Below, one piece after another: positions 6,505-48,154 of a stretch of 64,000 bases of DNA. Each line of letters starts with the position of its first letter. Position 1 is the first letter of the stretch. Source of the stretch: Sphagnum compactum. Its lineage: Eukaryota. The notes under the pieces were generated by a model that was not told the origin of the DNA, made no database searches, and worked only from the letters and a program-made list of their open reading frames with translations. The stretch covers positions 11,460,213-11,524,212 of the forward strand of contig OZ234493.1 in assembly GCA_965153455.1 (NCBI GenBank), read 5' to 3'. The translations under genes were made by a program, and so were the position numbers.

Positions 6505-8670
6505 TCAGTTTTCATGAGCTGCCACTGATATTGGGCAGATTGGAGATGTTTGGATGAGAGAAAAAACAATCAATGCTGGAACAGTCCATGTGAAGATGGG
6601 TGTCATCACAAGTACTGTTGACCCATAAGCTCTCGTAAGACTTGATAATAGCTGTGCCCCCACACATTTCCCCCAGGGAAAATTAGAACCAATACCAAAA
6701 ACACTAGACAATCGGGACTGCAATCACCATCCTTGAAGAGAATAAGTTTATTAAAGGGAGTTGACGGAAACCTTACCCGCCAGTGAAGAAATGTAATGGC
6801 CAAGCACCCAACAAACAGCCCTTTCCGAATGAGCCGGTTACAAAGGCTGCAATATTCATTCTGGTGTTCCAGTTTCCTATTGAGAAGTAAAGTCTCAAGT
6901 TCCCCCTCTGGCTGCGGTTCACACCTCTCCTTCAAAACAACCCCCGACTTTGATGCTGGAACTGACCTCATCTCCTTCAATGATGATCGCACACTTGCAT
7001 CCCTCTGGATGCTTCACTGGTAGGAAATACCAGGAGCCATTCGGACAATTTCGATCCACTCTGTCGGTGGCATTTTCTACATGCAGCTCTCTCAGCTGAA
7101 AGAGCAGAGACCATCAAGATCAAAGGGAAAAGCACAGTGTACATGTGAGGAAGAACTATTCCCATGATGTCTGGCACTCCTAATCCTGAAACTTGATTTA
7201 CAGAAGTTACATTTGAAGGCTTCACCGACCAACCCCAAACAGACATGTGACCAATAGGAAAATCATCCGCAAGCACCCGACCAGAAAACCATGGCAGAAA
7301 TGTCAAAGACATCACATATGCTAATGAACATGCCCAAATACAAGTGTTGCGGGCATTCTCAAAAACCACCCAAAATGGAACTTTGATCAATTTGAATATC
7401 ATTGTTCTGAAATCAGATGCTGGCCTTAAAACTGTCATAACCCACTCCTCACATAAACCAGCCTTTTCTAACTGAAAATTGAACACCTTTGGTACAATCA
7501 ACATTGAGAAGACAAATGCAACCATTCCCCACAGTAAGAACGGATAGAGTTTCTCTCACCGGAAGCCCATGCCAAGGTACCCTAGCCATGTGAGTCTAAA
7601 ATTTCCCAGGTGTCCATTTACAGAAAATGGACGTGGCTCACTGACTGTAATGCCCTTGTCCTTCTCTTCCAAAATGATCTCCAACCAATACCGAGTGGGA
7701 GAATCATCAGCATAGTCTGCACTGTTCCAAACAGCATCATAGTAATAAGGCCCACTCTCACGGCTAATGCCAGAGCTGTAATCGACGAGCCTCATTGAAA
7801 TCTCCTCAACTACAGTTGAGGCAAGAGATTTAGCATCAATAATTCTTGCCTTCATCCAGATGGGAGGTGTGTTCGAGAATATGAGCACCCGTATGCGGTC
7901 CAAGGGCACAAGATTTTGACGGAACCTTGAAGCATGGTTAACGAATTGAGTGGGAAAGTTGGAAGTATAATAGTTGGCATCACGAACTCCTGGTCTGACT
8001 TTTCTTTGGGTGGTATCAATTCCACATCCACAAATGAGGTGTGACCGTTATCTGTGGCCATTATACGCATCATTCAGCTCACCCGCCAATCCCCCATTTC
8101 CCACTCCCAGAATTCACCCACTTGCTTATATTCTGGAAACACGAGCCTGCCAAAATGACGACAATTCATTGGTACAAATCTCTGCATACTTTTCTTGACT
8201 GAAGAACATTCCTCGCGACTAAATTGTCAGCACTTAGAAGTGGATGAATAATTCCTTGATCTTGACACTGAAATCTTAGGATGGAAAGTTCCAAGTTAAT
8301 GTAATCAATTAAGCAAAAGAGCTCTGAAGAAAAGACTGTGTATATAACAAGGTGCAGTACCTGTGATGCTTATAAAGGTGCTTCCCAAATTTTGTGTGCA
8401 AGTGGCCACAGACGTATGCCGAAATGTTGTGCTTTGCAAAAATTCCTTCTGGGTGTTTCGCTGTCTCTGTTGAGGTTGTGAATGACATAGGAAAATGGCC
8501 AAACACAATTTTTGTGACGGGGGCAGAATTATCAGGGTCCCATTGGCTGAGTTGTTGGTCAATGTCCTCAAGGCTCTGGTCAGTGCCCGAAAACATTTGA
8601 TGGGGCCCACAGCCCAATCTGCATGGCATCATCAATGCCCACAAAGAGGTGCTTTCGCCCATCCACTCCC
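6505..8670 (-). pseudogene. TMEM62/At3g03305-type membrane metallophosphoesterase pseudogene, 3' part only (exons ~8670-8361, 8146-6777, 6651-6505)
   Basis: Motifs RKHLFVGIDD..IGL..PSNVFGH, FGHFPMSF, AYVCGHLH, EFWEWEMGDWR, LPTFPL, LPWFSG. Lesions: frameshifts ~8585, ~7915, ~7000; stops at 8074-8076 and 7556-7558. GT-AG introns retained. Confidence 0.85.
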
Positions 8671-15500: not shown

Positions 15501-17558
15501 TAATCATGCATTGCCTGCAACATGAGCTCTGGCATAACACTTCAATAATGCACTGGGTGAAATCAGCAAACAGCAGGAAATGTGTGGATCAATATTTTTT
15601 GGGTCAGTTTTGAGATATAGCCCAAGTGGCTATCATCGGTAGGAAGATTTAGTCAGATTTGGCTATGATCTAGATGTGGCATTAGAAAACATCTTTCTCT
15701 TATTTTTGGCTACCTACTTGAAAACCATGTATGGAAATCAGAAGTTTTTACTTTGAATTTGGTTGAATTTTGCCTCTTGACGATCTCAAAAAGCATTTGA
15801 TTTTAGCACTTTTTAATTTATGGCTTAGTTTTTTTTTGGCTATAGTTTTCTGGTAAAAGAGAGGTTGGTGTGTGGATGTGAACAAAAGTCATGATGATAA
15901 GAATGGAGGAGGCCAGAGGGAAAAAGTAAAGCGTGTTTGACAAGTCTCAAGGTGACATTGCATATTCCATCCTCAATTATGAGTAGAAAATAGAGATACG
16001 TGTTCCAGAAAAGAAAGTAAGGAATTGTTCAGTGGCCTAGAAATCGGTAAAGCGCGTAGGCTACGGGCTGAAGAGTCACGGCAAACCCCTTCTAGAAGTT
16101 TCTGGGGGAGGAGAAAATGAAGAAGAAGAAACATCTGTGAGAAAAGTCGAAAAAGGAGTAAGAGAAGAGAGTGGGAATTCCAGGGATATTGTGAAGAGGA
16201 AAGGGGTTGATTTTTTTGGGGAGATCTAGTGGAAAGATCAGCTTAGCTTGCGGGAACCTGTGATGTGAGGGACACCCATCATACCCTGTGTATGCTTTTG
16301 AGATGGCAAAGGATTTGTAGCAGGTTTTATGAGACCAAAAGGTTAAGAGAAAAATATTTATGAGAGCAGTGAGCAAAAGGAATTTCAGTGGTGCGAAATA
16401 TGGCAAATTCATATGGCCTCAAGGGAAAAGGAGTTGATCTTTCACAAGGGCCACCAAAAAGAAAGGGAGATGCTGTGCAGATCCCTGATGTGATTGAGAC
16501 ACCTTTGGTCCCCGCTGAAAATGCTCCTTCAAGCTCCAGATGGCACAGCAATGTGGTGCTTCTTCTTGATCTTCTCATGAGCTTTTCTTTGCACAGTTTT
16601 GTCTTGGGTTTTCCCAAGTTCCATGTTGAAGTTTGATTTTTCTTTGCTTTTTTTAATTTTGTTTGGGTGTTGACAATTTTCCTTGACCCTTACAACCATG
16701 ATAGCTTATTGTCCTCACCAAGCATCAGGAGAAGGAGGTCTAGTTCAGATTTGAACTCCCAACCAGCGGCTTCGCAACCATACCCTTTAGGCACTAGGGT
16801 ACCTGAATGTCGTCGATCATTTACAAGCTTCCTTGTCATACATTTTCAGTTTGCCTACTTTCCAGTTTGTTTGTTTAGATAAAAAACAACAGGAAATGGA
16901 GTCATCATTATAGCTCTTACATTAGGCTGGCGACTCAGTTGCTATATAACAAGTAGAATTGGTGAACGGGAAATTCGTCAATTGGCATTGACTAAGAATA
17001 TATTGAAATTGTAAGGTTTGGAACTTTCATTACAGATTATGAGTTAAGTTCAATGTGTAGTCTTGATCCAACAACCTAAGGCAAATTATTAAAATGCTCT
17101 TGGACATTCTTATTGGGTTTGTGTCCCAATTCCTTAGGAGTTCCAGGCCTTAGTGGCCCAAATGTTGGGGAAAATGTCATGAAATGCAAATGAACCAAAC
17201 TAGATGGTTGAGTTAATCAACCCAAACTTGAAAGAATCCCATTCTTCGCATTAACCTTTATGATTGGCATACGTTCCACTTGCTATGTAACAATATTTAT
17301 TTAGTGAACTATGTTTTGAAACTTTGAGGTCTATGACACATGTGAATGATCTTCATTTGTTAGTCATGCAAGAGAGATTTCGTATTATCCCATTCATCTA
17401 TTATTGTCTTCTTGTTAGACTTAATCTTTTCAATTACTTATTGCTTTTATCTAACTACTATAATTTGTATATTGCATTTCTCTAATTTAATATATAGTCA
17501 TATAATTTTCAAGAGATGTTTGAAGAATAGTGTTGACTTTTTTTCATTTTCTTTGTAG

Positions 17559-20500
17559 AAATATCTAGTGCATGATTTAAATCCCGCTTGCAATTCCAAT
17601 AATCCAAACTTGACCATCGTTTTTTTCCATGGGATTGCTTTTGGCACAAATGATGAATGGAAAGAAACATGGACAACGTGGCCCACCAACAATAGAGAGG
17701 AGTGCATATGTTGGCCACAAAAGTGGCTACCCCGAGACTTGAACAACAATGTTCGAATTTTATCATTGTCCTATGATTCTAACATTGTGGCAAGTGTTCA
17801 CAATGATGTGATTGAAATTGGCAAAAACCTCGTTCAAAGTTTGATTACAAATTCAAGGTGTGACAATCTCCTCTATTTATGCACACATTAATTACTTCTC
17901 CTTGTGTACATTAAAGATAATTGTTTACATCTTTAGAATTTTTTAAATGGTTTGCACAAGTTAATTATTCATGTGTGCTAATATTGTGATACACACCAAC
18001 AAGTTTCCATTTATTTGAATTCTTAGATTCATGTAGAAGAACATAAAATGGGGCTTAAATGCAAATGTTTTTGTTGAGGATAATAGCAAAATCTATTTTC
18101 ATATTATAAGTCCAGGGTACAACTAGTTTGGTTTTGATGCCAATTTTTAATTCGCCCTTTTTGAAGTTTTATCTTTGGTAATGCAATTAATTGAATTAAA
18201 TTATATTAATACGTGTAGAAAATTTGCATCCATTTCATTGCAAAAAGATTATTTAAAAAAAGGGCATATCTTTTTTTATTTAAAAAAAAAATTTGAACGA
18301 TATTTCCAAGGTAACACATAGAAGATGAGTTGTACATTAACAAAAGAATGTAAACACCTACATACTTGTACATAATAATTGTTTTACAAAACATGGTTGT
18401 CACATTTTTTAATTAGATTGATGGAGTCACTAAATAATAAATGATAAGTGACAAGCAAATCAATTATGAACTTCTGGTTTAGGTCATGTGTGAATTGAAA
18501 AATTGCCCCAAGTATAATGAAATAAATTTGTACATGCTAATACAATGTTGATAATGGAATTTTGGTGCATTGTTGAATATTTTGTAGTTATCAATCCCTT
18601 TGGGATGGACCGGTGGCATTAATTGCTTATAGTTTTGGAGGTATTGTACTCAAAAGCTTGGTGGTTGAAGCTCGCAAACATGTAAATCAAAGCCCAAGAA
18701 ATGATTTCGATGATGAAGTACACAAATGTTGTGAGACATTTTTAAACAATGTTAAAGGTGTAGTATTTTATGGTGTACCACATGCTGGCGGTACCCAATA
18801 TTTATCACATTATTTCATTTGGCAACATCAACAAATCAACACATTGAGCAAGTCTACAACCCAATCTGGTTTTTTAAAAGATTTAGAATCTTTCAACCCA
18901 CAAATGGAGCACCTTTCAACGGATTTTAAAAATGCCGTTCATGAAGACCTCAACATCTATGCATTTGGGGAAGGATTACCACTCGATGAACATTGGGTAA
19001 AATTTTCATTTCACCATATTAAAAGTTATCCAACTAGGTTCATTAGTTGAACGTTTTTTGTATTGTCAAAACTTGTGTGGGATCATGTACTCAATATTTT
19101 TAAATATATTAATGTGGAGAAGGACTCATGTGTTTTATGAACTTTGTTTCATGAATTACTATTGATGGAAAGGAAATTTGATTCATTTCAAACAGCAAAA
19201 AATAGGATTAAAATTTTCCCTTCATGAAATCAATTCTATATAAATATTTGTGAGGAAAATCATAACATCATTGAAACATGTAGGATTAATGAGATTCAAA
19301 ACCAATAACTTTGTGATGTATTTATATAATTTGCTTACCAAAGGGTTGAAGGAAATTACTTTTACACAAAATATTTCATTTTTATTCAAACATCAATCAT
19401 TATTAAGCTATAGTTTCCACCACCATTTGAAATTACTATGTTACTTATAAGTTAAAGCATAAGTGAATAAACAAATCAATGAGTTTCATTAACTTAATCT
19501 TTTGCACATGCAGGGAATTTTAGTGCCATTTGCCTCAGCTATCCAGTTGTCAAACAATAACCATTACAAAATTGAGGATGTTAATCACTTGACAATTTGC
19601 AAGCCACCGAACAAAGATCATCCAAGCTATTTTTTATTGTTAAAATGTTTGAAAATATGTATGGAGGTAAAAACATCAAATCTAAGTCTTTTGATTTCAT
19701 ATATGTTCATGTAATTTGATACACATTAGGTTGTAACACACTTGAGGTGTATCGCATATGCAATGTCATATATATTAGTTATAAAATAACATATAAATGA
19801 CCTATATTTTGTGAATTTTGACAGAAAAATATATTGCTTCCACCTTTGCCATGTCATGAGGTGGCATTGATTGACAAAGCAAAAGACATAAACATCTTAT
19901 TACAAAAGGAATCTATCGTTGGTTTGGTTGGAATGGGTGGGATTGGGAAGACCACTTTGTGCAAAAAATTCTATCATTTGTTTCACAACCAATATGACAA
20001 ATCTAGCTTTTTGGAGGATGTGAAATCAAAGGACAATATCAACGATGTCATAAAACAACTCCTACATGATTTGTGTGGCAAAAGGCTATGCAAGGATGAA
20101 AATGTGAATCAAAAAGACCTTGACCAAATTAGGCAATGTATGAAATCAGAGAAAGTGTTAGTGGTGGTGGATGATGTTGATAAGGCGGAGAACCTCACAT
20201 CCTTGCAACTTATCATTGATAAGAGTGCCAAGAATGCAACTTCTAAAAGCAAAGTACTTGTGAATTGTCGAAATTGGCAAAATTTGAAACCTCATGTAAG
20301 TGAGGATGGAAAAGTGATCATGAAATCTTTGGAGAAAGAGCAAGCAAGGGAACTCTTTATGTTCCATGCATTTGGTAATGCAAATCATGTTCCAACAAAA
20401 GATTTCAAAGATATATGTATGAAGATTATAAAAGCTTGTGGGGGGCTCCCTTTAAGTCTTGAAGTATTGGGTTCTTTTTTGTGCAATACCAAAGAATTGG

Positions 20501-22213
20501 AAATCTGGAAAGGTGCATTGAGCAAATTGAAAAGCGGGCAAAGTTTCACCGGGGGAAATGATAATGAAGAGCTTTGGAGTAAACTGAAAATTTCTTATGA
20601 CTACTTGGATAAGCAACATCAAAACATGTTTTTAGATATTGCTTGTTTTTTGGGTGGTTTGAAAATAAGTACAATTTGTCGAGCATGGAGTGGAGATTAT
20701 TTACACCCAAAATTTGGATTACAAAATTTACAACATAGATCTTTAATCCAATGGGGAGAAAGTCGAATCTTGTACAGACATGAACAATTACGAGACATGG
20801 GTCAAAATATTGCAATGGAACTTCCAATTATGAATCGATTTATATGGAAATCAAATAAGCCAAATTCCTTTTTACAAAAAGATGAGGTTGACACCATACT
20901 ATTTCAATCCTATAATTTTATTTTGATTTTCTATGATTTTTTTTTTGTCCCAAATCAAATGTTTTACCTTTCAATCTTGATTTTATAAATACATGTTTTT
21001 TTAAAAAATATGGGCATTATGATGAAATGTTGTTTTATATTGATAATTCTTTTGTTTTCATTTCATGTGATAGGTGGGGGAAAATTTAGAAGGCATTTCA
21101 TTGAAAAAATGTTTCAATTTGCTTGCATTGGCCCAAATTGGATCAAAGGGATTTCACAACCTTAGGTTGGTTGACCTAACAGAAGCCTCACCAACTATTG
21201 TGAAAATGTGCATGCAAAGGTGAAATTTGAATAATGTGAAGTGGTTGTGCTTCAAAAAATGCATGATTCGAAAGTTGCCAAGTAATTTGTTTTATTGTTC
21301 ACAATTAAAAGTACTTGATTTGACAGAATGCCTAAGTTTGGAAAACATACCTTCATGTATTGGCCAATTGAATGCACTCCAAGAGTTAAATTTGAATGGG
21401 TGTTCCAACTTAAAAGAACTTCCTTCATCTATTGGCCGATTGAATGCACTCCAAGAGCTTGATTTGAGTAGGTGTTCCAAGTTGAAAAAATTACCTTCAT
21501 CTATTGGCCAATTGAATGCACTCCAAAAACTTTATTTGTGGGAGTGTTCCAACTTGAAAGAACTACCTTCATCTATTGGCCAATTGAATGCACTCCAAAA
21601 ACTTTATTTGTGGGAGTGTTCCAACTTGAAAGAACTACCTTCATCTATTGGCGAATTGAATGCACTCCAACATTTTTTTTTGTCGGAGTGTTTCAACTTG
21701 AAAGAATTACCTTCATCTATTGGCCAATTGAATGCACTCCAACAGCTTTTTTTGTGGGAGTGTTCCAACTTGAAAGAACTACCCTCATCTATTGGCCAAT
21801 TGAATGCACTCCAAGAGCTTTCTTTGTGGAAGTGTTCTAACTTGAAAGAACTACCTTCATCTATTGGCCAATTGAATGCACTCTAAGAACTTGATTTGAT
21901 GGGGTGTTCCAACTTGAAAGAATTACCTTCATCTATTGGCCAATTGAATGCACTCCAAAGGCTTATTTTGTCGGAGTGTTTCAACTTGAAAGAACTACCT
22001 TCATCTATTGGCCGATTGAATGCACTCCAAGAGCTTTCTTTGTCGGAGTGTTCCAACTTGAAAGAACTACCTTCATCTATTGGCGAATTGAATGCACTCC
22101 AAAAGCTTTTTTAAAATGAGTGTTCCAACCTGAAAGAACTACCTTCATCTCCTGGTCAATTGAATGCACTCCAAAAGCTTAGTTTGAATGGAAAGTTGAA
22201 AGGCAAAAAATGA
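17559..22213 (+). pseudogene. Alpha/beta-hydrolase-NB-ARC-LRR (HNL-type NLR); exons 17559-17857, 18588-18996, 19514-19666, 19825-20886, 21074-22213; start exon not identified; 3 stops in the LRR exon
   Basis: Hydrolase motifs IVFFHG, WPQKWLP, RILSLSYD, AYSFGG, GVVFYGVPHAG, NHLTICKP. NB-ARC motifs GMGGIGKTT, VLVVVDDV, CGGLPL, MFLDIACF, RHEQLRDMG. Splice phases are mutually consistent. Stops at 21221, 21884, 22112. Confidence 0.92.
21340..22190 (+). repeat. Array of 12 near-identical 72-bp LRR-coding units
   Basis: TGAATGCACTC recurs every 72 bp from 21369 to 22161; unit LKELPSSIGQLNALQxLxLxxCSN. Confidence 0.95.
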
Positions 22214-24863: not shown

Positions 24864-27496
24864 TCAATTGCTGCCAAGAAGAGAGGCCAAACCAAGGCCA
24901 ATGGATTCCTTGCCATGTTTGTCAAATGGATCATCACCAATGTAGAGGTCAAACAGTGACCGACACAACAATGCACTTTGCAAATTACCAACCTCCTTTC
25001 CATCAACTGCAGAACCAGATCAACAGAAACAAACCCCATCAGAAATTTGAGCACATCTCACATCAGAGACAAGGTTCACATTTCAAACTGCTCTTTCCTG
25101 GCATTGCATATGCCAAATGGGTATAGCCATTACTTTTGGTCTGAAGAACATAGCCAGGGAGCCGAGTGAGGTCAATGGAAGTCCCTCGGGGAAGCTTTAT
25201 GTCATCCTTAAATGCACTGGTGAACCTGTGAAAACAACCCATGTCAAAACCTTTTCTGCCACACTTAGCACTGGAAATAATTACTCCATCAGTGAGAGGC
25301 TCACTAAGTGAAACCTTCCTGAAAACATTCAAAATAAAAATGATTTGTCAATGTTGTACTAAATGTCCACTATGAAACCCTCTAAATGAGCCCAATAAAC
25401 TGCTGTTCATGCTCTACCAAAGGTCACAGACCCAAGGCATGGATGTAAGGTTGAGACCAAAAGGCTTACAAGCAAAAATAGGAAAATGAAGACAGCAGAT
25501 CAGGCAGGCACACAGGGAGCTAGCTACCTTGAAAGCAGATCGCCATCTTCCCCATTGCTGAACTTTTTGATTCGACCACCTACTGACTCTTCAAAGGCAC
25601 TACGCATGCTGCCTATTTTAAGGTTCCCATACACAATGACCAAGCGGACTGTTAGTCCCACATCCTTTTCTATAACATCTTTATAGAAACCTGGATTCTT
25701 TTTCAGTTCATCAGAGGTCATGCTGCCATACTGGACACTCAGCTTGCCTCTCAAACTTTCAGGATCGGCATAAACTCCTGTCAGTCATCACAGTGCAAAC
25801 CATTGATGAGTACCAATCATCACTTGATTCCTGATGATAAATACAAAACTCAGGAGGCCATAATAGGTATTGGCAAAGGAGAAGAACACTTGCTCTGGCT
25901 ATCATAATCTTCCATTGATGGATGGATGTCCAAACTAGATCTATTCTTAAGAATTCTTGAGGACTTCTGTTTGAAAGCACCTTTCCATAATCACTGGGGT
26001 GTGACATTTGACCCTTTGCACAAGAATCCAACCCTAAAAAATAATATGAAAACAGTGGAGCAAATAAACAGGACAGAGCAAGATGTGCATATCAGCTGTG
26101 AAAGACATAAGAGGTAGAAAATTACCGAATGTGTAGACGGTAATTTTCTTCAATCCCAATATGCTCTTTGTTCGCAAACCTGTACCAGTAAGCAGCTGGC
26201 ATTTGTTCAAGACGCCTGGGAATGTCATCCCTGTCTTTGGCTCCACTACCTGACCACACCAAGCATTCTGTCTTTCAACAAACTTTGAATAAAAATAAAA
26301 CTCATGCCATAATCCACTTCTACCATGACCAGAATGCTTCTTAAGACAGCACCTCTCCATCAATCCTTACACAATAAATTCATCACTGCCCCCCTTGAAT
26401 GTGGAACTACTGAGAGAACGTGCTATCACTTCTCAACCCTGGAGCAAAAACAGAGATGCACAGAAATATTGAATACGATGCTACTTCCATGATCAAGCAG
26501 GAAAAGATGTGGCATTGCTGAGAGATTGTGACACTGCTCATGCCTGGAGCAAAAGTATGAGATGAAAAGAATGCACACAACATGATGATTACCATGCCAC
26601 TTCCGTGATCAAGCAGCAAGAAATGTGGCATTGCTGAGAGAATGCAACACTGCTCAATCCTAGAGCAAAAATAGGAGATGAAAAGAATGCACACAACATG
26701 ATGATTACCATGCCACTTCCATGATGAAACAAGAGATGTGGTATTGCTGAGAGAATGTGAGAGATTGTATGAGAATGCGACACTGCTCAATCCCAGAGCG
26801 AAACTATGAGATGAAAAGAATGCACACAACATGATAATTATCATGCCACTTCCATGATGAAGCAAGAGATGTGGCATTGCTGAGAGAATGAGACACTGCT
26901 CAATCCTGGAGCAAAACTATGAGATGAAAAGAGTGCACACAATATGATGATGATCATGTGCTGCTTCCATGATCAAGCAAGAGATTGACATTGCTGAGGA
27001 TATGAAACATTGCTCAATCCTGGAGCAAAACTATGAGATGGAAAGAATGCACACAATATGATAATGATCACCATGCCGCTTCCATGATCAAGAAAGAGAT
27101 GTGCAATTGCTGAGAGAATGTGACAGTGCTCAAACCCTGAAGCCAAACTGGGTGATGAGATTCCAGAGCCTGAGAGAATCAAAGACCCACCTCCTCCTCG
27201 ACCTGGCCGAGTCCAGCATTCAGCGAGAGCGCTGCAAAAGAAGAAGAAGAAGACGAATTCTTCAACCAGGAAAAAGCCAACTCGCTTCCACCCATCAGTG
27301 TTTGCGAGATGGTCTGCTCCAATGCTGCCCTCTGCGCGGCGAGATGCGGAGTGCACAGAGTTAGACCTGCTACCGTAGCAGCAGCAGTCCCCACACCCAC
27401 AATCGCTTTCCATCGCTGGCTTACGCGAGTCCAGTTGCTCCCGGCGGGAAATTGCCCCCATCCAGACAACCCTGACGGCGTCGGAACCCCAGACAT
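24864..27496 (-). CDS. FAP1: Chalcone-isomerase-fold fatty-acid-binding protein FAP1-like, 5 exons (27496-27191, 26249-26126, 25777-25528, 25225-25134, 25006-24864)
   Basis: VVEPKTGMTFP..GLRTKSILGLKKITVYTFGVYAD..VRLVIVYGNL..AFEESVG.RIKKF..FTSAFKDDIKLPRGTSIDLT..SALLCRSLFDLYIGDDPFDK; GT-AG sites with matching phases; N-terminal Ser/Ala-rich extension. Confidence 0.9.
26420..27142. repeat. Intronic minisatellite, ~6 copies of a ~115-120-bp unit in FAP1 intron 1
   Basis: Recurrent CTCAATCCTGGAGCAAAACTATGAGATGAAAAGAATGCACACAACATGATGATTACCATGCCACTTCCATGATCAAGCAAGAGATGTGGCATTGCTGAGAGAATG. Confidence 0.9.
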
Positions 27497-44854: not shown

Positions 44855-45234
44855 TGCAATCCGCCCCCTCCTGTCTGCCCAAGCTTTCCTTCTACAATTC
44901 TCGAGCAATGCCGAGAATGAGTTCAAATTCACTCGCCGTGGTACTCTAGTCTAGACCCCCAGAAAGCTTGGGCAGACACCTCATTCCGTTCCAGCTTAAG
45001 GACTTTCGGAAATTCAGGGCTTGCGATGTAACCCGCATCGCAACCTGCGATACGGTATTGCTCGCAACGGCCGTGCAATGCTGTTCGTATCGCAACGGAT
45101 GAAGGTTGCGAAGTCGGGGGCTTCGCTAACGTAGGAGGAAGTTAAAGGTTTTAGGGCTTTGGTTTAAGTAACGTATGTAGATGCGAAAAGGGATGCGATG
45201 GTAGGGGGTTTGCAAGGGGCTCGCAAAGTTTTAG

Positions 45235-48154
45235 TACATGTGAAGAGGCTCGATATGATCCTCAGATGCTTACAGAGAAGGTGCCCAGGAAATCAGTAAG
45301 GTGGTTTCCCATTATTCCTCGCTTGCTGCACATGTATCGATGTATAGACTTGGCCGAGTTAATGGTTTGGCATAAGGAACATCGATCAGAGCCTGGTGTT
45401 ATGAGGTTACCGGTTGACTCTCCTGCTCACAAGCATGTGGAGTCAACATGGCCAGAGTTTGAGCGTGACCCTAGGCATGTGAGGTTGGGGTTAACATCAG
45501 ATGGTGTTAGTCCACATTCACTTGGAGGAAAGGGACGACCTACCTCTGTTTGGCCAGTTGTTGTCATGAATTACAACCTTCCTCCGTGGTTGTCTATGAA
45601 AAAAGGATTTTTGCTGCTTTCTCTTATTATCCCAGGGCCAAGTAAGGTGAAAAACCTAGACACCTACTTAGCACTAGTGGTCGATGAGCTCAAAACATTG
45701 TGGGATGGAGTATGGGCATATGATGGGAGGAAGACCACTGGAGGAATACCACATGTATTCAAGTTGAGGGCAATCTGCATGTGGACAATGCATGATTATC
45801 CTGGTAAGAAATCATGCACATGCCTCTATATATTTCTTTATTATTCTGTTTTGTGATTATTTGTTGTTCTAATATTCCGTTCTTCTACAATCAGGGTTTG
45901 GTTTTGTAAGTGGGCTGCAAACTCAAGGCTACAAGGCCTGCTCTACATGTGGCCCAAGTTTCGAGGACATGGCTAAATACTCAAGCCATCTTCGCGAAAT
46001 TGTTTACCTTGGCCATACAAAGTTTCTTCCACTGGGACATGATATGAGATCAGACCCACTTTTATTTTCATCTTTTGACATGCTTTATGGTGATGAGCGT
46101 GATATTCCAGAAGCTACCACTTTTGCATATTGGAGGGATGTGACCAATAGAGTTATTGACCTAAATGATTCTATGGTGTTTGAGGGTAGTGGATTGACAA
46201 GGTGGGGTATACTCAACAGCTTGCCTTACTGGGGTGAGCTGAAAATACGTCATCTCTTGGACCCCATGCACATTGAGGGAAATGTGGGAAAGGCTATCAT
46301 AAAACAGCTCTATGGAAAGAAGGACAATAACTTTAGGGAGGCCTGTGAGGATTTTGAGAGGCATCCCGATGTGTGGATTACTGTTGATCCTAACACAGGT
46401 ATTGAGCAACGACCATCAGCTCCATGGACACTTACTACACAAGAAAGAAGAGACTTTCGAAATCGCATAAGAGAGATGCGATTCCCTACAGGTTTGAACT
46501 TTGATGGCAAGGTTTGAATTTAGAAGTACTCTATTGCTTTTATTTATATTTAAATCTGTATGCCTTATACTGGAAAAAGAGTTTGAAGTATAGAATGTTA
46601 TCTGTTGGATGTCTAGAATACTTTTGTATAATTTTATGGTACCTTGTTGCAGGTTATGGAGCTAATCTTCAAAAAGCTTTTAGTAGGGACGATGACCACA
46701 AGTGGCCAAGGTATCTCAAGACACATGACTATCATCGTTTACTGCAACACATATTGCCTGTGGCAATAATAGGCTTAGCTAGTGCAGAAGTACAAGATGC
46801 TCTTTGGTCGTTGGGATATCTGTTGAGATGGGTATGCTCAAAAGAGTTATTTGTAGAGGAGATTCCAAGAATGAGGGTAATAGCAGCAGAGGTGGTATGC
46901 AAGTTGGAAAAGGCCTTCCCTCCATCATTATTTGATTGTCAAGTGCATTTACTAGTTCACCTTGTGGATGAAATAGCCATTGCTGGTCCTGTGCATTGTC
47001 GGTGGATGTATTGGCTTGAAAGATATATGGCAGTATTAAAAGGTTATGTCCGTAACCATGCACGAGTGGAGGGAAGCATGGCAGCAGGACACTTGGCAGC
47101 AGAGAGCATGTTTTATTGCACCAACATCTTGGCCACTATAGATCCATCATGTCCTCATGTCTGGATGGAGGAAAGAGAAGAGGAGGAAGACCGTTTGACT
47201 GGTGCCATCAAAACATGTATGTTATTACCAACAGAGTTAATTCAGTTGACCACATTCATGTTGAATAATAACAATGTCATGGAAGAGTGGAGGAACTTCT
47301 ATGAGAATGCCAAAAGTATGAATGGGAGATCAAGGATTTTTCCTACGTTTCATAAGTACATGAAAGAGAAGTTGGTTGAAGTGGATCAATTGTTGGCACA
47401 AGGAGAAAGTATAGCATGTTTTCCAGAGATCACAGATGATGTTCGCACCATGGTTCATGGACCACTGAGAGTTGTGACAACACGTTCAGCAATGTGGACA
47501 CAAGGAAGACATTTCAGGTATTCATTTTTTCTATTTCATTAGGCATATTAATTCATCTTCATATTCCAGACAAGTTTTTTAGAATGATCTAGGATGATTT
47601 TTATGGGCATGAAGTTTCTATTATCATATAAGTTTAGGACTCACAATGCCTAACACAATATTAATTTCAGGATTTCCAGTTTGGATGAAAAAAGGGGCTG
47701 CACCTTTGACTGTGGAGTTCAAGGGCAATTCATTCAGGACTCTAGAAGCAGTCGGCATGACAGGAATATTGTTCGAGATATTGTGCCACATTATGGAAAG
47801 CTGGAAGAGATCTTGGTGGTATCTTATGATGCACATTCAAAGTTTGAAGAGTATGTGTTTAAGTGCAAGTGGTTTAAAGTGAACCTTGCTGGTGCAAATT
47901 GCACTGTAGTTCAGGATGAGTGCGGACACACACGGTTAAAGACATCTGCCACCAGTTATCAGCCATTTCATTGGCAAACTTCAGAGCCATTTACTTTTCC
48001 CAGTCATGTAGAACAATGCTTTTATCTTCCTTATCCCCCAAACCCAGAGGAGTGGTCACTTGTTGTCACATATGTGCCACGGTCTCGTTCTATTCTAGGT
48101 GAGAAACCAGAGGTTGTGTTTACAACCTCTGAGGTGGATGATGACCACGTATAA
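45235..48154 (+). CDS. CACTA Tnp2/TnpD transposase, 5'-truncated (exons ~45235-45803, 45895-46491, 46653-47516, 47671-48154)
   Basis: WFPIIPRL, DPRHVRLGLTSDGVSP, SVWPV..YNLPPW, MHDYPG, LDPMHIEGN, LKTHDYH, HLLVHLVDE..GPVHCRWMYWLERYM..LKGYVRN, YGKLEEI, FKCKWF, EPF.FPSHVEQCFY. Confidence 0.92.

Follow-up and report, generated by a model that had tools for sequence, protein, structure and literature searches.

Hydrolase-headed receptors of the nucleotide-binding, leucine-rich-repeat type (Hyd-NLRs), in which an alpha/beta-hydrolase precedes NB-ARC and leucine-rich repeats (LRRs), are an already described class of bryophyte proteins. Bryophyte hydrolase-NLRs go back to Xue 2012, as cited in PMC4986451, and were reported in Marchantia by Andolfo 2019 (PMC7145615); passages of a review describe them as abundant in Marchantia, Sphagnum and Ceratodon (PMC10952240), and a passage of PMC12512272 calls them bryophyte-specific. 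Chia 2024 (PMC11218826), in the passages that define the class, places most members beside bryophyte TIR-NLRs, with minor Sphagnum subclades inside the CC/RPW8 clade, and reports that two Marchantia hydrolase heads cause death resembling a hypersensitive response, with ion leakage, in N. benthamiana, the isolated heads being sufficient for cell death. In fungi, sesB-like lipase heads occur in about one-fifth of annotated NLRs and have been linked to human SERAC1 (PMC4986451, 2014), and in a passage of the same paper Dyrka et al. already termed the bryophyte NLR hydrolase 'sesB-related'. Here we describe a gene of this kind in a 64-kb stretch of the moss Sphagnum compactum (64,000 nucleotides, the window; GenBank assembly GCA_965153455.1, contig OZ234493.1, positions 11,460,213 to 11,524,212, forward strand), which a first-pass annotation had read as a SERAC1/SesB-like lipase domain heading a plant NLR, naming both the bryophyte and the fungal precedents, which passages of PMC10952240, PMC11218826 and PMC4986451 bear out.

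We consider it likely that the gene is a Sphagnum Hyd-NLR copy comprising a leader, a hydrolase with a candidate catalytic triad, NB-ARC with a winged-helix domain (WHD), and a broken LRR region, a reading carried by observations on the gene model, the domains, the fold, how the triad residues are conserved and placed, and the LRR exon with its three nonsense codons. The order of hydrolase, NB-ARC and LRR, the Sphagnum lineage and an NB-ARC/WHD of the TIR-NLR-like type are those of the bryophyte class, whereas this copy differs in its three LRR nonsense codons and its clade in an A-Y-S-F-G-G nucleophile elbow in place of G-H-S-x-G-G. With the fungal sesB-like and SERAC1 proteins it has in common a lipase-like alpha/beta-hydrolase N-terminal to a signal transduction ATPase with numerous domains (STAND), sesB being so characterized in the published description (passages of PMC4986451), but the fungal proteins combine NACHT or NB-ARC with ANK, WD40 or TPR, as opposed to plant-type LRRs. 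The class is thus already known, Sphagnum included, and the locus is an ordinary, possibly decaying member of a large family. The first-pass annotation was silent both on the LRR stops and on the prior publication of the class for Sphagnum.

Gene model and relatives

The gene occupies 16400-22213 on the plus strand in six exons, every border being GT-AG with the frame kept. The model was read from genomic DNA with the help of splice borders and tblastn of two annotated S. compactum relatives, P0001 (1350 aa) and P0002 (1049 aa). The surrounding DNA is plant DNA and the introns are long and AT-rich; an Rfam search of the whole 64-kb window returned no matches, so the introns hold no RNA gene. 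Exon 1 (16400..16555), located about 1 kb 5' of exon 2 by tblastn and splice context, begins with an ATG at 16400 and encodes a low-complexity, basic, Ser/Pro/Lys-rich leader of 51-52 aa (MANSYGLKGKG...WHSN(V)), with alternative donors at 16552/gt or 16555/gt. This leader is common to P0001-P0003, with tblastn identities of 92.9% to P0001 and 96.7% to P0002. Whereas the window leader begins with MAN, 25 of 66 Sphagnum leaders begin with MG, which we take to be a possible N-myristoylation glycine, and a PPKRK-like basic patch is present in 42 of the 66.

The hydrolase follows in three exons, numbered here by the window protein model. Exon 2 (17559..17857) encodes strands beta1-beta4 with the motifs FFHG (from residue 74), CWPxxWLP and SLSYDS, and places His76-Gly77 (17628-17633; His76 at 17628-17630) at the oxyanion-hole position. 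Exon 3 (18588..18996) carries the elbow A-Y-S-F-G-G (from residue 165), FYGVPHAG (from residue 212), a helical cap insertion and beta7, which ends in Glu280; exon 4 (19514..19666) supplies beta8, the histidine loop EDVNHLTICKP (NHLTICKP from residue 312), a Cys317 that is invariant across the family, and the last hydrolase helix. Together exons 2-4 encode an alpha/beta-hydrolase of about 287 aa joined in frame to exon 5 (19825..20886), to which Pfam assigns NB-ARC and a Roq1-type winged helix, and exon 6 (21074..22213) holds the LRR region with three in-frame stops, its frame ending at TGA 22211-22213. The junctions read 17857/gt...ag/18588 (phase 2), 18996/gt...ag/19514, 19666/gt...ag/19825 and 20886/gt...ag/21074. 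All four hydrolase motifs named in the first-pass annotation (FFHG, AYSFGG, FYGVPHAG and NHLTICKP) lie where it had put them, in one frame per exon; its extent of 17559..20886 captured exons 2-5 and was incomplete, missing exon 1 with the ATG and the LRR exon 6.

Exon order and junctions are colinear with P0001 and P0002 by tblastn, with P0001 identities of 92.9, 94.2, 94.9, 98.0 and 92.2% over exons 1-5 and 87.9% over the LRR region; tblastn with P0001 and P0002 found no second gene copy in the window. The proposal that three hydrolase exons splice in frame to NB-ARC therefore holds on the GT-AG borders, the kept frame and this colinearity. Four relatives called from short contigs as uninterrupted open reading frames (ORFs) run through the exon 3/4 and 4/5 junctions: P0040 (251 aa; contig of 1170 nt), P0038 (1006 aa; contig of 3802 nt; also through exon 5/6), P0029 and P0058. 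From the short contigs and unbroken ORFs we infer that these four are spliced transcripts of family members, which lends indirect support to the hydrolase-to-NB-ARC splice in the family, at the relatives' loci rather than at the window locus. Taken with the junctions and the fold modelled for a close relative, these spanning ORFs place a hydrolase fold N-terminal to NB-ARC in one predicted transcript unit, the arrangement that characterizes Hyd-NLRs.

The NB-ARC assignment is strong: exon 5 scores 108.8 bits against PF00931 (cut-off 23.5; E=3.5e-31) and its winged helix 41.4 bits against WHD_ROQ1 (E=1.6e-10). The NB-ARC motifs are intact, with the P-loop GMGGIGKTT from residue 375, Walker B as LVVVDDV at 451 and GLPL as GGLPLSL at 545; an NB-ARC above the Pfam cut-off with all three motifs is what is expected of a plant NLR. 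At the MHD-like motif (20776-20784, plus strand) the window reads R-H-E, where P0001, P0002 and P0028 have I-H-E and P0003 has I-Q-E.

Exon 3 retrieved 111 proteins at E<=1e-3; a Sphagnum source name is attached to 97 of these, and the remaining 14 show a jgi label only or no name. The closest are P0001 and P0002, at 96% and 95% identity over exon 3, both annotated as hydrolase-NB-ARC-LRR proteins. A hand count of the precomputed Pfam column gave 88 of the 111 with NB-ARC (41 together with LRR families and 47 without), two with a kinase instead, two with LRR only and 19 with none of these. Hydrolase-only models, such as P0006, P0073 and P0078, also occur in Sphagnum annotations. The named non-Sphagnum relatives among the 120 matches listed are liverworts (Marchantia paleacea and Riccia), so the source names give the family the bryophyte origin expected of Hyd-NLRs. 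The window's own protein was not among the matches in the protein collection searched for relatives. Profile A1, made from eight hydrolase-only Sphagnum relatives, reached further: in a set of 1.84 billion proteins it matched 1795 representatives at E<=1e-3, 475 of them at E<=1e-10. From the 150 representatives listed, 43 whose match spans most of the domain were chosen by eye and scanned against Pfam at E<=1e-4: 17 gave NB-ARC, 16 DUF676, four PGAP1 (two of these above the cut-off), two a kinase, two B-lectin, one a caspase, one Arm repeats and 10 nothing. The fungal sesB-like architecture appeared in none of these 43.

Fold and candidate triad of the hydrolase head

The head appears to be an alpha/beta-hydrolase of the DUF676 type. 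DUF676 (PF05057) is its best and nearly sole Pfam match, and the elbow and a downstream 'PHxG' are shared with that family, although the scores are marginal and the match spans only profile positions ~33-167 of 217. P0001 and P0002, the full-length proteins nearest to that of the window, narrowly clear the cut-off of 20.3 with 22.4 and 21.0 bits, and P0006 falls under it at 16.8; DUF676 is matched at E<=1 by seven of the eight hydrolase-only relatives from Sphagnum, the best at 9.3e-6. PGAP1 (PF07819), a clan-mate of DUF676 in Pfam, matched none of those eight at E<=1, and its sole weak match among Sphagnum proteins was in P0039 (E=0.1), on which grounds we reject PGAP1 membership of the head. 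At the level of groups, the nearest in Pfam are the DUF676/PGAP1-like esterases, which also head sesB-like NLRs of fungi. In a language-model Atlas the nearest clusters are likewise DUF676, from Streptophyta and Ascomycota; at rank 24 (score 0.94) lies a DUF676 + NACHT_sigma cluster, 33% of whose members carry NACHT_sigma, a lead towards the sesB-like heads of fungi.

For the fold we turned to P0006, a hydrolase-only Sphagnum relative 83% identical to window exon 3, modelled with AlphaFold2 (AF2) from a 30-row alignment, A2. The model has a mean predicted local distance difference test (pLDDT) of 80.1 and a predicted template modelling score (pTM) of 0.80, with the leader and one loop at low confidence, and contains a helical cap at residues 221-267. 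Foldseek returned 385 PDB matches at E<=0.001, the top-listed being mostly lipases, esterases, thioesterases and other alpha/beta-hydrolases with template modelling (TM) scores of 0.45-0.59 on target length, which makes the fold a generic alpha/beta-hydrolase one without a close solved relative. With E=1.2e-6 and a TM score of 0.58 (target length), the Bacillus licheniformis lipase BlEst2 (6wpx/6wpy) takes second place by fold; it is also the best PDB sequence match (E=0.0011) of the broader profile A2, whose matches there are weak ones to lipases. BlEst2 has x-Y-S-x-G-G at the elbow and TPHHGS aligned to the family VPHAGS; it differs in its low identity (~14%) and in being a secreted bacterial enzyme without an NTPase partner. 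Profile A1, confined to Sphagnum, drew a single PDB sequence match, an LRR protein at E=0.78, which we discarded as spurious. An alpha/beta-hydrolase head on a plant NLR, as first proposed, is accordingly supported by DUF676 in the relatives, the P0006 fold and its PDB matches, and the NB-ARC score.

Fold position and conservation together point to a candidate triad of Ser167 (18631-18633), Glu280 (18970-18972) and His313 (19586-19588), P0006 numbering plus one giving that of the window protein. In the P0006 model the HG pair ends strand 69-75, Ser166 comes after strand 160-165 and before helix 168-184, strand 273-279 closes with Glu279, and the loop that follows strand 304-307 contains His312, so that HG, Ser, Glu and His follow one another in the canonical alpha/beta-hydrolase order. 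Averaged over blocks of 10 residues, pLDDT is 94-95 where Ser, Glu and His lie (94 for Ser) and 78 for the HG block. Across aligned Sphagnum rows the serine is kept in 100 of 104 (two Cys and two Thr otherwise), the glutamate in 106 of 106 and the histidine in 92 of 92, and the oxyanion pair in 91 of 92 (His) and 92 of 92 (Gly); the retention of a putative Ser and His that the first-pass annotation had pointed out is thus a property of nearly the whole clade. Among aligned wider-family representatives, Glu is held in 91 of 106 and His in 71 of 74.

Does the unusual elbow speak against activity? In the model, A-Y-S-F-G-G has the small-x-Ser-x-Gly pattern of a serine-hydrolase elbow, with Ser167 predicted between beta5 and helix C. 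The departure from G-H-S-x-G had been read correctly, and it is specific to the Sphagnum clade, the family consensus being G-H-S-x-G-G. The solved lipase BlEst2 aligns S-Y-S-K-G-G at this point, and Bacillus lipases use an A-x-S-x-G elbow. As a clade-wide variant with a counterpart in a solved lipase, the elbow is no argument against activity, and the worry first attached to it lapses.

State of this copy and the output proposed for the family

Exon 6 matches LRR_14 at 117 bits (E=1e-33) and is interrupted by three in-frame nonsense codons: TGA at 21221-21223, TAA at 21884-21886 and TAA at 22112-22114. The first is codon 743, so that the whole LRR is lost and a 742-codon frame is left, from which at most a 742-aa LRR-less protein could be produced; where a plant NLR would have a C-terminal LRR in the same open frame, the LRR sequence is there and its frame is broken. 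A splice that bypasses the TGA at 21221 was considered and rejected, the sole GT falling within the context of the codon, and any acceptor in frame leaving an intron of ~20 nt. Both P0001 and P0002 have Arg at this position, which marks a plain nonsense change. Part of the LRR region is a tandem array (21348-22180, plus strand) of a 72-bp (24-aa) unit in 11.6 copies with 88% matches, near-identical repeats that suggest unequal crossing-over or conversion; P0001 holds roughly twice as many repeats, and the window array is much shorter. With its LRR removed by the codon-743 stop, this copy could not act as a ligand-gated receptor.

Judged by its sequence, this copy is most likely a recently disabled paralogue, a view we hold with modest confidence, and may otherwise be the source of a 742-aa LRR-less hydrolase-NB-ARC protein, which we regard as possible and less probable; between a young pseudogene and a maintained LRR-less protein we lean to the young pseudogene.

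What would an intact family member do? By analogy with other NLRs, the LRR would sense a pathogen cue and NB-ARC would oligomerise, clustering the hydrolase heads. The clustered heads might then turn into an active esterase, whose likeliest substrate would be a lipid or lipid-like ester, and this output would lead to cell death or a signal, as the two Marchantia heads suggest. A lipid ester is favoured because lipases and esterases make up the nearest relatives with a structure and a name, and because the head bears a helical cap; that the family output is catalysis on a lipid ester we put forward only tentatively, by analogy. No cell-death test of a Sphagnum hydrolase head was found in passages of PMC11218826.

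Several observations weigh against parts of this picture. The window's exon 3 alone reaches 13.6 bits against DUF676, below the 20.3 cut-off and thus a marginal match. At the nucleophile, aligned wider-family representatives have Ser in 89 of 112, Cys in 14 and other residues (Gly, Asp, Asn, Lys or Leu) in nine, and this variability raises the possibility that catalysis may be dispensable in some family members. Codons 1-742, which bear on the pseudogene part, are without stop or frameshift and keep conserved residues better than the median relative, departing from residues held in at least 90% of relatives at four of 351 columns (I171, D250, V311 and M740), where the median departure among 61 annotated relatives is 2.2%. 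Finally, the literature searched, of which coverage is partial, yielded no report of catalytic activity, a substrate or Ser/His dependence for any Hyd-NLR.

The same good preservation feeds the alternative that the truncated protein of leader, hydrolase, NB-ARC and WHD is functional at 742 aa, as a constitutively primed executor or by helping or regulating full-length paralogues. An mRNA whose premature stop lies in the last exon may escape nonsense-mediated decay. The 742-codon ORF is intact, all its splice sites are canonical, its few changes at conserved columns fall below the median of the relatives, P-loop, Walker B and GLPL are untouched, and 47 of the 111 exon 3 matches are themselves annotated with NB-ARC and without an LRR family. 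These LRR-less models, however, end at differing places, several in intron read-through or flagged 'partial', and have the look of assorted truncations or breaks in annotation, not of a conserved class. Nor does the placement of the stops help: the share of stop-prone substitution paths downstream of the first stop is 0.345, and finding both later stops there has P=0.12, which is not significant. We think a working truncation unlikely and lean to the disabled paralogue.

We find it similarly doubtful that the head works without catalysis, as a lipase-like scaffold, a small-molecule binder or an effector bait, with the NLR signalling through partners; EDS1 has been raised as a comparison for the hydrolase head in a passage of PMC10952240. 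The wider family lends this some substance through its 14 Cys and nine non-nucleophilic rows of 112 at the nucleophile, the kinase fusions P0050 and P0053 and the shorter P0039 that lack the histidine exon, and the joining of the domain to modules of the lectin, caspase, kinase and Arm kinds. Inside the NLR clade of Sphagnum, by contrast, the near-complete retention of triad and HG residues (Ser 100/104, Glu 106/106, His 92/92, HG 91/92 and 92/92) is the pattern expected of purifying selection on catalysis, and passages of PMC11218826 in which Marchantia heads alone cause cell death fit an executor better than a bait. Catalysis by the head thus stays the preferred, if tentative, output.

A bolder idea, and a quite improbable one in our estimation, is that LRR-less hydrolase-NB-ARC proteins form a working Sphagnum class of sensor-independent executors or helpers, the 742-codon frame being kept by selection. 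If that were true, the head would be a shared death or signalling module, also carried on the kinases P0050 and P0053, with catalysis optional, given the Cys, Gly or Lys at the nucleophile of some relatives. That the fusion is a gene-model artefact, a hydrolase gene adjoining an NB-ARC gene and never joined to it in mRNA, is hardly credible: the window model does come from genomic DNA alone and hydrolase-only Sphagnum models exist (P0006, P0073, P0078), yet all junctions are in frame and GT-AG, the NB-ARC exon begins at an acceptor without a start codon context of its own, both parts sit in one model in 88 of 111 relatives, and ORFs run unbroken over the exon 4/5 junction in P0038, P0040, P0029 and P0058.

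Hyd-NLRs are of interest as a class because, unlike most classes of plant NLR, they still await an assigned output chemistry. To this the locus itself adds little, as one more Sphagnum paralogue near annotated proteins and with a broken LRR. By-products of the analysis are a named Ser-Glu-His candidate triad with coordinates and the recognition of the elbow as a trait of the Sphagnum clade and no defect; the variable nucleophile across the wider family bears on whether catalysis is needed.

Other head fusions and the rest of the window

The head also occurs in other company. Two Sphagnum proteins, P0050 and P0053, combine the same hydrolase head with a helical stretch and a kinase domain (Pkinase, 1e-45); P0039, a shorter model, shows the break at the same place. 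In all three the divergence falls exactly at the end of exon 3, so that the catalytic-His exon is missing. In P0149 (Marchantia paleacea, 1113 aa) hydrolase domains of the family are fused to a caspase-family peptidase C14, and further fusions are to B-lectin in P0173 and P0229 and to Arm repeats in P0249. Non-Ser elbows read GHCLGG, GHGAGG and GHKFGG, for example, and Sphagnum P0095 has G-Y-C-F-G-G. In 11 of the 120 listed proteins PF23559 replaces the Roq1-type PF23282, with head identity of only 40-44% (P0282, P0284 and P0102 are examples); they make up a second clade of Hyd-NLRs in Sphagnum, which is perhaps the minor subclade embedded in CC/RPW8 that appears in passages of PMC11218826.

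Elsewhere in the window, exons of a TMEM62-like gene lie on the minus strand at 6606-8047 (TMEM62_C 9.1e-47, Ig_TMM62 6.1e-22). On the plus strand at 45155-48154, fragments of a plant transposase, spread over several frames, match Transposase_21 (3.2e-40), DUF4218 (1.3e-31) and DUF4216 (3.8e-7), families that we take to be of the CACTA/En-Spm type, and the element looks degraded. Tandem repeats at 26456-27149, with a period of ~114-133 bp, up to 5.7 copies and 76-92% matches, overlap with long ORFs on the minus strand for which Pfam gives no match.

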